A DNA stretch of 63,869 nucleotides. Source: Leucoraja erinacea (lineage: Eukaryota). The notes under the pieces are model-generated. The model did no database searches. It was given only the letters and a program-made list of their open reading frames with translations, and had not been told where the DNA came from. The stretch lies in the NCBI RefSeq assembly GCF_028641065.1, contig NC_073389.1:40734132-40798000 (forward strand). The letters are read 5' to 3'. The translations under genes and the position numbers were made by a program. This document shows positions 546-61,000 of this stretch, piece after piece. Each line of letters starts with the position of its first letter. Position 1 is the stretch's first letter.

Positions 546-3500
546 TATTTACAATGCCTCCAGGAACTGGATTGTAAAGTTAAAGGGAGAACTTTCACTT
601 CTTATTCACCTCTTGGGCTCGCCATTTAAACGCAAACGAGATTTGCTTCACTTTTTACTAAATGAGTGCTTTTTGTTGGGAGGGTAAATGTTCTGGGGAA
701 GGTCGCAGGTGCGCTCTAAAGAACAGTGCTTATTTATTAGTATCTTCTATTTGCTACATTTCAGATAAACCGAGATTGGTGAATATTCCGTGCGATCTCT
801 GGTGGATCATATTTTATTTATGGATTTTTTAGTTCTGTTCTGTACAAACCTCTATGACAAATGCAAAGGTTTCGGTTTTAGGTCAATGTACAATACACTT
901 ATTGAAGATAATATTTAGTATTGTGAAGTGGCAAATATGTATCGGTGGAGTTTGCAAACTCTTTGGCCACAGATGCTACCTGGTTAGCTGAGTTCCTCCA
1001 ATATTTTTATTTGCTTAAGATTCTAGCATTTGAAGTCCCTTGTTTCCATGTGGCAAAGTACTATTCGACGATGCTGCATATATTTGCCAAATCAGTCTGC
1101 AGCTTTGTGGAACAGAATGACAAATTGTGATGTTAAATACGCTGATAAACATCCTGACGTTTATGTTGGAGCTACTTCATGCCATGTCATTTGTTATATA
1201 AATAGTGCATCTTACAATACTTTTTGATCATCTGTGATGCTCTTGTGAGTTTGGAGCATCTGCAACTATTTTTCAGTTTAGTACATCAGCTGCTGAGACA
1301 TTGTTAATTCCAAGGATTCTTCCAATTGGATCTCCCATTACGTTGAACTGGTGTTAGTTTGATATCCCCTTGGGCATTCTATGATGTTTTGAAGTCACCT
1401 AAATGTCAGGGGAATACACAGCCATCTCTTATTATAACAGCAATTTTATTTGTAAGCACTAGAAATACATTGATTTTGCTTCTTTGAGGTGGTTCTGGCT
1501 TTCTAAATTTCAGAAATACTCTGAAAGAGCCTGAAAATTTAGTGTCAAACATCACAATTTGGAATGTGGTGATATTAAATTCAATAAAACCTCGGAAAAC
1601 AAAAGTTGGCTAATGGATGTTTTATTTGGATTGCAGGATGGTATGCTGTGAAATTTCCCTGGGGTTTAGCATTGTTGCCTGATTCTCTCACTCTATATAA
1701 ATGTAAAACTTTGTCATAAAAATTAAATCAAATATCTGTGAAGACAATTGCCAATGACTTGTTTACAAAGCAGATTATTGTCATTTTAAATTTTGTCCAA
1801 GAAATTGTGCAAACAGAACTGTATTCATTTATGCTTTTTAAAGATGTATAAAAGTTGATGAAGAAATGGTATAACATAAATGCAAAGAGCAAATGGCTTC
1901 TTTGTGTCATAACATTCCTCGTTTCAGCTGAAATGAGGCTGATCATATTTATTCTACCAAGTACATTTGTATTTATAGTCCTAACTTTAAATATTAACTA
2001 TACTGGTAGTGAATTTTTAAATTAGGTATGAAAAGGCAAATTTAAACTAAGTTCACACTTGCATTTTCCAAAAGATGATGCAGTTTGATTGCATATGCAG
2101 ATCCATTATCTACATATTTACTATTTGTGCCATAACCGTGCGAGTACTTAATTCTTTCTGTACTGCACAGTAATATTTTGAAATTACGTTTGGTAAACTG
2201 CCTTTGTTACCTTTCACTGGCCAATTGTTTTTTTTAGAATCAATGATCACTGAACAAACCTCAGTGAATCATTGGTATATATGTGAAGAAAACAAGATAA
2301 ATAATGATCCAAAATATTGCAGATGTTGGAAAGATGAAATAAAAATGTTGGAAGTACCCAGCAGGTCACATCAATGGAAAGAGAACCAATTAACATTTCA
2401 AGATCTGACATGTTAACTGCTCGTCCCCCAAAGACCGGGAGGGTGGATGGACACGACCGACGAGATGCGAGCCGGTAGGACAGGTGACGCAACCGGAGTC
2501 TGGACTATCGTGCCCTCGAGGTGGGCTGTGTGAGGAGCACCTGGGGAACAAAGGTGGACATGTGGGGAGAGGATGTTGGCCTGTTTCCTTTATCGTCATT
2601 ACTTTTTTGCATATCTTTCATTCATTGTTCGTTATCTCCACATCACCGTCTATATGTCTCCTTAACCAGTCTGAAGAAGGGTCTTGACCCGAAATGTCAC
2701 CCATTCCTTCTCTCCAGAGATGCTGCCTGTCCCGCTGAGTTACTCCAGTTTTTTGTTTCTATCTTCGGTTTAAACCAGCATCTGCGGTTCCTTCTCACGC
2801 ACTACTCTTGTCAATTGGGGATACGCTTTGGTATGGCATTACTCTACTGGACTGTTTGTAAGTGAAGAATTTCATAATGCGTTTACACTTCGCACATGTT
2901 ACAATAGAAACACCAATGATTCTCTTGCCACGGATGTTGCCTGATCCTCTGAGGATTATTTGGATAAATGACTATTCCATGGGGGTTTAAAGGTTATACT
3001 GTTGCATGTTAGCTGATGCTTACATGTGTGTTGGATCTGTGGAAAACAATCTAAATAAGAGAAATTAACGTAGAAAATACAATTGAGAATTAATTTATTA
3101 ATTTTGAGATAAACGGCAATTTTGAGAGATTTTAGGAAGTTGATTATATTGATACAGCTTTTCATAATCTATATTCTCACTGAAACGACGATACGATAAC
3201 CAAAGGGAACACACAGCAGGTCCGCACCCTCCAATGTTTATCTCCAGTGACCTATGAACTGGGCATGCGCAGTCGGAATACCAAACTCGCTTATTGTTTT
3301 GATGTTGTGAAACATACAGCAACATATTTCGATATTGTGGTTAAACATTGATGGAATTGGTGAAAGTGGTTATGCGGAAGTCATGTTGGAAATTTGTCCT
3401 TGTGAAGTAAAGATTAAAAAGCAGTAGATTAAATTGTTCTGATTCCACAATTACTTTTGGCTGAAAAATGCCCTTTACGTTAGTAGATTTCTCAATCACA

Positions 3501-58000: not shown

Positions 58001-61000
58001 GGGCAGCAGGTCGAATCAGTCCAAACGCAGGATTTTCTGTCTCTAAAATTTGCTCTATAAGGCACCGGGAGGTGTAGATGTCCATCAGGGAGGGGGAGGG
58101 CAAGATCCTCTGCGCTGTCCTTCATGCGCATGGATAATGAATTTAAATAAAATAATCATAGTTTCCTATTTTCTTTCTAAAATTTGCTCTATAACCCTTC
58201 TTGAAATTGGTGGGGTCTCACGTGTAGTGCCAGGACTCAATTGGTGTTGGATCCATGAGATAATTCACCAATGTAAAGATGGAGTATCCCAACAAGCCAG
58301 GTCTCTTCCAGTGAAATCCATGTAGAGATTAGCAGTAGAGCAACCTGATGGAAGGTGTACATCGCACACTCTATACTTGGAAGTCTGGGATTGACCTTTG
58401 GACCAATGGTTAAATGCTGATGGTACTAATCAGAACCACTGTACTGAAAGACCATGCGACCTGGATTAACAGTGATGACTGGCCAAACATGGTGCTTAAC
58501 AATATGTGCAAAGTAATGTAGTTACAAGGATCTGCAGATGGTGGTTTATACCAAAGATAGACACAAAGTGCTGGAGTAACTCAGCCGGTCAGGCAGCATC
58601 TCTGGATAAAAAGGATGAGTTATATTTCAGATTGGGAGCCTTCTTCAGACGAAAAAGGTTCCCAATCCGAAATGTTGCTCATTCATTTTCTCCTGGGATG
58701 CTGCCTGACCCATAGAGTTACTCCAGCACATTTTGTCTATCTTGTGCAAAATTATGTGGTTAAGTTACCAGAATTTTGAGGCCTAGTCTGGTATTCGAGG
58801 GATACAAGTTTGGGTTCCATCATGTCAATTGGGAAATTTAGGTCCAGGTAATTATATAATTTGGAAATGAAGAACTGATGTTGATGATGGGAACCACGTA
58901 ATTAAACCGATCTATGCAGAAATCCATTTGCTTCATTAATATAATTCAAGGAAAGATATATTGTGTTTTTTTTTGTTTGGTTGATCCGATATGTGACTCA
59001 GTTCCACCGATCTTGATTCTAATCTTCCCTCGGAAATAGCCAAGCACAGCATTCAGTTCCGAGAGTAATTGGGAATTGATAATAAGTGCTCAACTTAGAA
59101 GGACAGCTGCATCCTGTGAATGAGCAAAATAACATTGTGCATTTGAGCATTTCATAATACACTATACTACAATAAAATAAACTGGATACTTAAGACAGAA
59201 AAGGAATATTGGTATTGACAACCAAAGACTCTTATATTAGCATAAATGACCTTAAAGGTGTCATTTAAAGTGGATCTTAAACCAATGGAGTAAATTGTTG
59301 AGTAAATTAGTGAACTGCAGAGCATGGTGCTGTGACGGGTGACAAAGATGTCTGAGTGATATAGAACTGACACAGGCCAGTAAGTCTATATTGACCATCA
59401 AGTACCCATTCACACTTCTTCTCACACTCACATCACCTTTTCCTCAGATTCTACCTCTCACTTAAACATTAGGCTCAATTAACATTAGCCATTTAACCTG
59501 CCAACCCGCATGTCTTTGTGATGTGGGACAAAATCAGGACACCCAGGGAAGCCCATGCAATCAGGGCAAGAATATGCGAACTCCGCACAGACAACAATAA
59601 ATATTCAGGATTGATCCCAAGCTGCTGGAGCTGTGAGGCAGCAGGTATACGAGCTGTGCCACTTTACTGCTGATGTGTTATAATCAAGATTGATTCATAT
59701 GAATGGAGTGTAGTTGGACAAGTTGTACACTGCAAGCTAAGCCACAAAGCAGAGCATGGCCATGATGTGTTTAAGTGTGAGAATTAAACGTTAAATTGTT
59801 GGAGGAATTTTAAACCAGGAGTGATGGACATTTGGGATTTAGTGAAGACCTACGCAGTGACATTTCTGTTCTTGTTTTTTTCAGTCAATATCTTTTCTCC
59901 TCTACCTAACTGGAAGACAAAAGGAGAAAGGCCCTTTCCTGATCCTGTGTCCGTTGTCAGTACTAAGGAATTGGACAGAAGAGTTGGGAGGGTAAATTAA
60001 GTATTGCTCTTGTTTCCTGCATGCATTAAACATAACGGCTGCACACTGAACATCCTTAACTGAAGCTTGTTTAGATTCTCTTATTTTTCCACTCCCTCCA
60101 TTCAAGATATCATACACCATACCATGAGAAAATATATAAAGGTAACTTCTTTATTAATACAGCTCTTGATTCTGAAAGCACCCTTTTAAAAAATAAATTT
60201 GTTTGATCTCACCGGGTAGCCGCTCTATCTCTCCCCCTCCCAGGTTGCACTAGCATCTCATTTTCACCCTGCAAACAGCTAAGAATAGCCTGTTTCCATT
60301 ATCATTGTTACTTTTTGCTTATCTTTCATTCATTGTAATCTCTCCACATCACCGTCTATATCTCTCGTTTCCCTTATCCCTAATCAATCTGAAGAAGGGT
60401 CTCGACCTGAAACGTCACCCATTCCTTCTTTCCAGAGATGCTGCCTGTCCCTCTGAGTTACTACAGCTTTTTGTGTCTATCTTTAATTTGTTTAACATGT
60501 CAGCCATGGGTCTCGTAATATCACTATCATCTTCCAAGTCGGAGATCAATCAAGTGCACTACTGAAGACATACTACTTTGTAAAAGAGAAGAGGATTTCT
60601 CTCCAGTGCACCAATATGTATCTCTAACCAAGCTCCACACGAAAATACCTTGTCATTTTTCTATTTTGGGCAATTGCCTGCTGCATTTCAAACAATACAA
60701 GACTAATTACATATCATAGCTACTTGCAAAGTGTTTTGGGACTTTATTAAAATCAGATATGCCATATGAATTGTCCCTTTTTTGTAATTAATGTTGATTG
60801 AATCACCATATGGAGAACGGTTGGAGCAGGCCCATGCCGTGCCAGATTTTTCATGATGGAGCTTCATTGTGCTATGCCACCACAACACTTTAATAATAAT
60901 TTATTTATTTTGCAGACTTGCTCCACGACTTTCATTAGTTGTGTACACTGGAGACAAAGATACAAGAATAGCGTCTCAACGAGACCTGGAAAATTGCAAT

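Follow-up and report, generated by a model that had tools for sequence, protein, structure and literature searches.

The stretch of Leucoraja erinacea DNA analysed here (NC_073389.1, positions 40,734,132 to 40,798,000; 63,869 nucleotides, referred to as the window) harbors three host genes on its plus strand together with many short, dispersed units that carry a hammerhead-ribozyme motif and are related to Penelope-like elements (PLEs). The first gene (153..15347) has eight exons with GT-AG introns and encodes a member of the Got1/Sft2 family, presumably SFT2D2. The second (30386..49958), also with eight exons and GT-AG introns, encodes a T-box protein which we take to be TBX19. The third (54901..63408) encodes an SNF2-related helicase, by our assumption CHD1L; its introns are likewise GT-AG and it extends past the end of the window.

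An initial annotation had listed the motif at 12 places, and it is present at all 12. The numbers given there for minus-strand copies are the low ends of the cores; the corresponding C3 residues lie at 7830, 10941, 25600, 33467 and 53620. Motifs with perfect boxes and a helix II of at least 4 bp occur three times in the window, compared with 0.2 on average over 30 shuffles, and hammerhead motifs with one mismatch 17 times against 3.5 in shuffles. A strict descriptor returns 42 matches in 864 kb against 0-1 in five shuffles. With a profile comprising the hammerhead core and 100 nt downstream, 34 copies are found in the window and none in the reversed sequence. The individual copies are unevenly preserved. 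The annotation had credited the motif with both hammerhead boxes, but these are kept in only four of the 12 copies (2671, 33440, 43383 and 60389) and not in the other eight; 43383 is the only one that also possesses the G10.1-C11.1 pair and the ACGU palindrome, with all core features intact. Helix II, described as holding across subfamilies, is indeed 91% paired in 14 window copies; however, the step from GGGU/ACCC to GGGU/GCCC is a one-sided change from U-A to U-G, and the single two-sided change among these copies occurs in an old one. Pairing in helices I and II together amounts to 89% in 14 hand-picked window copies and scores higher than 498 of 500 shuffles, with few two-sided changes and with some of the 5′ letters belonging to flanking sequence. 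An Rfam check gave no match at any of the 12 places, its only hammerhead row being a weak one at 6778-6859 (Hammerhead_1, 19.6 bits, E 6.5). That row falls on a distinct hammerhead-like motif in gene 1 intron 2 (6772-6820, plus strand), in which helix I has 5 bp but both the GAAA box and helix II are broken. A search of the genome found no second copy of it, and it is probably an old relic. A look-alike at 35748 was rejected; it lacks G12 and is part of another abundant repeat.

Introns of all three genes had been named as the location of the family. Each gene has at least one copy, but only seven of the 12 are intronic, those at 25573, 25613, 51388, 53593 and 53624 lying outside the coding spans. 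Counting all 34 window matches, 24 are intronic, 12 in sense and 12 in antisense orientation. Gene 1 intron 1 contains a PLE 3′ end (2577..2800, plus strand) which consists of a remnant of the 3′ untranslated region (UTR), a subfamily A core (C3 at 2671, boxes intact, AUGU for ACGU) and a long tail. In intron 3, a head-to-head inverted pair (7704..7885) with a target site duplication (TSD) of 12 nt has a minus arm with core (7830-7803) and long tail and a plus arm without core. A subfamily B unit on the minus strand (10844..11301; core 10941-10914) continues through a pyrimidine-rich UTR into 200 bp of the start of the PLE open reading frame (ORF; 11073-11274), has a TSD of about 17-19 nt and lies inside a non-LTR (long terminal repeat) retrotransposon. 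This retrotransposon (8350-12060, minus strand) is broken, retains a reverse transcriptase (RT), a C-terminal zinc knuckle and a restriction-like endonuclease, occupies most of intron 3 and has PLE ends inserted in it; we assume it to be R2/Hero-like. Intron 7 carries a decayed inverted pair (14667-14788) and a single minus copy (14862-14954; together 14667..14954). Downstream of the gene 1 stop codon are found an old-subfamily unit (17567..17673, minus), an intergenic minus unit cut off within the core with a 10-nt TSD (23798..23888), an inverted pair outside the coding spans with both cores mutated (25546..25739; cores 25600-25573 on the minus and 25613 on the plus strand) and a plus-strand subfamily A unit with long tail and mutated core (29058..29186).

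Gene 2 intron 1 holds an inverted pair, whose core at 33467-33440 has intact boxes and a helix II of 3 bp, with an older plus-strand unit (33371..33713). The old-subfamily hammerhead at 34282..34373 (plus) has the 5-bp helix I reported for it, but its CUGANGA box is mutated. It has an inverted duplicate at 36393-36475; an inverted duplication of about 370 bp (34213-34582 versus 36175-36546) carries the old hammerhead in both arms. Three plus-strand units belong to subfamily D: a decayed one at 34649..34787, one at 37728..37860 which starts at the core edge and has a long tail and a broken helix II, and one in gene 2 intron 2 with G12 mutated (40577..40700). In intron 4, the plus arm of an inverted pair (43294..43477) contains the only fully intact core of the window (43383-43410), with a helix I of 1 bp and a predicted hairpin with the minus arm. 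Truncated minus units are located in intron 6 (47185..47290). Past the gene 2 stop follow a plus-strand subfamily C unit which includes a pyrimidine UTR together with a UTR arm in inverted orientation (51259..51515; core 51388, C3 mutated) and, outside the coding spans, a subfamily B inverted pair with both cores mutated (53525..53696; cores 53620-53593, minus, and 53624, plus). Gene 3 contains two single subfamily A units on the minus strand of intron 1 (56823..57235), namely 56823-56921 with a 10-nt and 57141-57235 with a 12-nt TSD, a subfamily D inverted pair in intron 2 (58524..58747), and in intron 3 a PLE 3′ end (60223..60487, plus) with 165 nt of 3′UTR, a core with intact boxes and a G10.1-U11.1 pair (60389) and the short 3′ site. 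The TSDs announced by the annotation are real: at four insertions in the window they measure 10, 12, 12 and about 17-19 nt.

The best genomic matches to the 2671 copy have the C-terminus of a GIY-YIG endonuclease as their upstream sequence, and stepwise 5′ extension within the same genome leads through a zinc-knuckle linker and an RT with YIDD into a long N-terminal region. One locus, L116 (G000:C31:2611800-2618300), presents the full arrangement of pseudo-LTR (pLTR), ORF and pLTR over about 3.8 kb. Its pLTRs (619-775 and 4079-4348) are confirmed as direct repeats flanking the ORF, and both contain the hammerhead, which ties the motif to full-length PLE termini as had been expected; L118 is a partial tandem of the element. 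The coding order in L116 is RT (YIDD), CX4CxxC linker and LIYC..C..YIGET endonuclease; the linker, CNRRRCNTC, precedes the endonuclease and fits CX2-5CxxC. Homologues have PF00078 and PF01541 (43% identity to one such endonuclease half, E 3e-59), and the best named relative of the RT, at 65%, is from Chiloscyllium. Pfam gave no match on three broken ORF fragments, and NCBIfam a single weak GIY-YIG row (E 0.089). Every window unit aligns to the terminal repeat and only 10844-11301 adds ORF sequence. Of 413 units, 27 have the endonuclease C-terminus immediately upstream, and these are spread over all subfamilies. Judged by sequence homology, the units are thus almost certainly terminal repeats of a Penelope-like element, and the description of the motif as a minimal type I hammerhead of PLE origin is borne out.

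The CX4CxxC linker would place the parent element in the Neptune or Nematis clade. A CX2-5CxxC linker marks these two clades and is absent in Penelope and Poseidon (PMC8557442). Two points weigh against the main reading of the units given below: the clade comes from a motif and not from a tree, and all the long copies translated, L116 included, have a broken ORF. Two peculiarities of the ORF ends were also observed. At L116:4056-4348 and 619-805 and in L036 (subfamily A), the frame past the ORF stop is mostly open across 3′UTR, hammerhead and tail, and the apparent ORF start shares this frame; by eye this is not so in subfamily B, and the open frame may be due to chance in pyrimidine-rich DNA. 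In L125, L128, L135 and window 10844-11301, fragments of the ORF start are fused to a hammerhead unit or 3′UTR, possibly as template jumps or as internally deleted non-autonomous copies.

The family is abundant. In a genome sample of 80 blocks of 10 kb picked at round coordinates, the profile gives 379 matches that make up 4.2% of bases, and the genome estimate is 1.04 million copies (bootstrap 0.85-1.23 million), an inverted pair counting as two. Core and helix II are both intact in 24 of the 379. Two exact strings of the intact core, the second ending at U16.1, occur 16,121 and 22,924 times in the genome, 39,045 in all, while controls gave 0. Four subfamilies were distinguished among 256 long matches, with about 92, 90, 83 and 75% identity to the column majority; two further clusters are deletion carriers. 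Among the first 100 matches that carry a letter other than C ahead of AGTCTGAAG, taken from the first 9 Mb of G000:C1, 25 share a preceding GA, and this GA before AGTCTGAAG suggests an additional subfamily or a recurrent junction.

The copy number allows the ends of the units to be defined. At the 3′ side, subfamily A ends cluster at +94-96 and +130-133 from C3 (79 of 84 copies aligned; one runs into the ORF). These two sites, about 36 nt apart, are the known PLE tail. Head-to-head inverted pairs number 74 and account for 148 of 413 matches. A TSD of at least 9 nt is present at 23 of 57 inverted pairs (null from mismatched flanks 3.8%) and at 15 of 69 single units (null 3%), with sampled lengths of 9-18 nt, and in 19 of 22 pairs the two arms belong to the same subfamily. 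Since TSDs flank the pairs and the arms share a subfamily, the pairs are single insertions. The arms are unequal: 48 of 59 classifiable pairs combine one long with one short arm (p 1e-6). At the 5′ side, 176 of the 233 copies that reach the core 5′ edge stop there. Thirty copies were selected on the ORF start; 13 of them reach the edge and 11 of these 13 start between -7 and +2. As so many units and ORF-start copies begin at this edge, a run-off (strong-stop-like) cDNA is suggested, and the fixed 5′ end likely marks where the element RNA begins. A 5′-end peak at the GUC cleavage site was sought as well, but only 8 of 351 starts fall at columns 31-33 and no peak is seen after GUC; cleaved RNA was rejected as the template on this ground.

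With a probability of roughly 0.6, we read the units as the hammerhead-bearing terminal repeat of Neptune-type PLEs, inserted with TSDs as short run-off cDNAs. The element RNA would start at an initiator-like YCAGTCT, 3-4 nt before CUGA, as in a scheme inferred from the Poseidon element of Anolis; YCAGTCT at the core edge presumably fits the initiator consensus. The element protein would nick DNA and start cDNA inside the RNA at +94 or +130. Given competent start sites in the 5′ repeat, the cDNA would reach the 5′ end of the RNA and run off it once about 100 or 135 nt had been made. This strong-stop-like cDNA would usually be joined straight to the target or, alternatively, to another cDNA derived from the opposite strand, which would yield an inverted pair; about a quarter of events would continue into 3′UTR and ORF. 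Insertion would likely be carried out by the element's own reverse transcriptase-endonuclease, and only in master transcripts would the hammerhead have a role, in dimeric form or aided by protein. Published systems offer precedents for several of these steps: synthesis of Poseidon cDNA begins at two internal sites of the RNA, which define the tail, and needs ORF-start RNA, the template is uncleaved RNA and both DNA strands are extended (PMC11167929), and the Penelope promoter is internal and TATA-less (PMC2377424). By this analogy, the run-off mechanism in itself appears moderately probable.

The same ends could also result from ordinary 5′ truncation, with the RT starting in the 3′ repeat of an RNA that is longer or in tandem, then stalling or folding back at the CAG-T-CTG quasi-palindrome, an account we regard as possible but doubtful. 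Truncation is consistent with a sequencing depth that declines steadily 5′ along the ORF in relatives' DNA, and with the CAGTCTG near-palindrome found at many inverted junctions; solo pLTRs and palindromic inverted junctions are known for PLEs (PMC3846280). The drop at the core edge is, however, abrupt: of 351 non-continuing copies, 157 have their start within the first five model columns, compared with 5-21 starts in any five columns inside the unit. Moreover, the start keeps its place in subfamilies with unrelated UTRs, and most units that stop at the edge have no inverted partner (160 versus 56). Several observations weigh against run-off in their turn. Pass-through is as frequent at the 5′ pLTRs (2 of 13) as in short units (57 of 233; p 0.74), so that both element ends behave alike, as a simple stall likewise predicts. 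A cap-derived G was present at the 5′ junction in 11 of 16 cases of the first sample but in 3 of 13 from a later sample of 60 new blocks. The first 100 genome matches have it in 37 cases, with 28% expected (p 0.04). In a polyA run from a related organism (X16, 6% of the run read), no places were found where many molecules begin or end, a search of low power.

A splice-acceptor origin of the core edge (pyrimidine tract plus YCAG, as in D. virilis Penelope) was considered and rejected: two candidate donors gave 1 and 0 spliced junctions versus 1,917 unspliced ones, and the single match is an ORF-start chimera. No spliced joint was found among the 15 joints listed from the relative's polyA RNA. 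Splicing is still possible, because PLEs retain introns. A more general proposal, that PLEs replicate with a retrovirus-like strong-stop step and that the million units are integrated strong-stop cDNAs, is tentative and on present evidence unlikely.

By column counts, the family possesses CUGANGA and GAAA boxes, a bulge after A9, a G10.1-C11.1 pair, a palindromic 15.2-16.2 segment and an NUH triplet; the motif is likely a self-cutting RNA. None of 11 core columns differs among the four subfamily majorities compared with 23 of 68 downstream columns; because the core letters are alike in all four majorities and the downstream letters are not, constraint on the core acted in the masters. After insertion, G12, a CpG site, changed in 23% of copies versus 16% for tail CpG sites, and G8 in 11% versus 8-9%; the copies have probably been inert since insertion. 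Here too a point stands on the other side: non-CpG core sites are off majority in 5.3% versus 8.2% in the tail (p 0.006). When only subfamily-invariant columns are compared, p rises to 0.07-0.5, and a slight protection of non-CpG core sites is not excluded.

The annotation had further proposed that sense copies could cleave host pre-mRNA. That such copies act as ribozymes on the transcripts and regulate the genes is a very improbable reading, even with tens of thousands of intact cores in the genome and with reads from ORF-bearing copies (L116:2366-4042) that are 2-4 times more often antisense in X16, provided that strand is correctly calibrated by about 10 reads behind gene 1. The catalytic G residues are unprotected, intronic copies are evenly divided between the strands and paired copies are opposed. 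Helix I measures 0-2 bp in 23 of 26 intact copies, as had been noted for young copies; 5 bp are seen only in the old copy at 34282, and the usual 4-5 bp are not reached. In secondary structure predictions, which leave out tertiary contacts, the active dimer reaches -6 to -7 kcal/mol versus -22 to -28 kcal/mol for competing folds, and copy 43383 folds onto its inverted partner in a hairpin of -45 kcal/mol. PolyA reads fall on the two strands of the unit in near-equal numbers (978/962, 1829/1736, 800/738 and 766/797) and 93% of them continue into unrelated sequence. No RNA ends at GUC were found in X16, which is weak evidence. Published minimal hammerhead ribozymes (min-HHRs) show weak cleavage, for which a dimer or protein is required (PMC4209133, PMC11167929). 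The window copies are best described as ordinary repeat debris which is unlikely to regulate the three host genes.

Nor was the proposal of a separate non-autonomous, retrozyme-like system upheld, as the units are letter-for-letter the terminal repeat of elements with RT and GIY-YIG endonuclease. A self-transcribed retrozyme- or SINE-like unit, copied by the PLE protein in trans, could account for discrete 100/135-nt units with TSDs that far outnumber ORF-linked ends; internally deleted pLTR-ORFstart-pLTR copies (L125, L128) could act in trans, and vertebrate retrozymes derive from pLTRs (10.64898/2026.07.22.740005). We nevertheless consider this origin improbable. No separate short-unit lineage was found: short and UTR-linked copies are distributed over the subfamilies in like manner (chi-square p 0.54) and show no grouping in a neighbour test (p 0.98), at the low resolution offered by 90-nt copies diverged by 10%. 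In 140 blocks (1.4 Mb) that contain 293 cores, same-strand neighbours no more than 500 nt apart number 18, with no run of three and no head-to-tail tandem array. Starts do not pile up at the cleavage site, RNA ends at GUC were not seen, and the ORF-start RNA required by the Anolis protein is missing from the units (PMC11167929). Rare head-to-tail dimers with a spacing of 146-148 nt (L180 9045-9191, minus strand; L222; L238) are candidates for retrozyme-like dimers.

Non-LTR retrozymes (PMC7229834; 10.64898/2026.07.22.740005) share with the skate units a type I hammerhead, pLTR ancestry and a unit of 100-450 bp. They differ in forming head-to-tail arrays with canonical hammerheads and circular RNAs, whereas the skate units are single or head-to-head, minimal and without a lineage of their own. 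The canonical traits, helix III and loop 1-loop 2 contacts, are lacking in the skate motif, which has no helix III and a 2-bp helix I. One chondrichthyan species is reported to have retrozymes, and up to 120,000 canonical hammerheads are reported for axolotl (same two sources).

The resemblance is closer to the min-HHRs of metazoan PLEs (PMC4209133), with which the units have in common both boxes, the bulge between 9 and 10.1, G10.1-C11.1, the palindromic 15.2-16.2 and the absence of helix III. These min-HHRs reside in pLTRs of fish Neptune elements among others, cleave weakly as dimers only, and likewise occur mostly as dispersed singles from truncated PLEs and as opposite-strand pairs. Helix I, with 2 bp in young skate subfamilies, is shorter than the typical 4-5 bp and matches the 2 bp of D. 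virilis; the 4-bp helix II counts as a difference. At least 39,045 exact intact cores compare with about 9,000 in Xenopus, by differing search methods. In the available part of that paper no chondrichthyan example appears. With the endonuclease-bearing PLEs of the Neptune and Nematis clades (PMC8557442), the parent element shares RT, CX2-5CxxC linker and, at the C-terminus, a GIY-YIG domain with cysteines between GIY and YIG, as well as pLTRs, partial tandems, an inverted 5′-truncated copy and a 30-40-bp tail at one end only. Poseidon of Anolis (PAc; PMC11167929) agrees in the two 3′ end sites that form the tail, in the uncleaved RNA template and in the lack of RNA ends at the cleavage site. 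It belongs to another clade without the zinc linker, its ORF start lies at stem II and the apparent one of the skate element about 165 nt past C3, and run-off units are not described for it in the text available. The literature searched held no chondrichthyan PLE hammerhead and no strong-stop model for PLEs; supplements, Repbase or Dfam may list the family.

Two further features of the window lie apart from this family. Gene 1 intron 1 contains an inverted duplication of 489 bp with 97% identity (843-1331 versus 3630-4118, 2.3 kb between), and gene 3 intron 1 starts with a C-rich minisatellite with units of about 20 nt (55080-55813).

The kind of element is already known, namely PLE pLTRs with minimal hammerheads. 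What goes beyond the literature searched is the fixed 5′ end and the asymmetry of the arms, the mechanism of both being a candidate. The scale is considerable: about 4% of a vertebrate genome derives from one PLE end, with tens of thousands of minimal hammerheads that are intact in sequence, and so many copies allow statistics, at the level of single bases, on the points at which PLE cDNA starts and stops. Together with the long and short arms, the fixed 5′ end makes the model of run-off and strand transfer directly testable. If the strong-stop model were true, it would jointly explain the pLTRs, the partial tandems, the one-sided tails and the purpose of the hammerhead.

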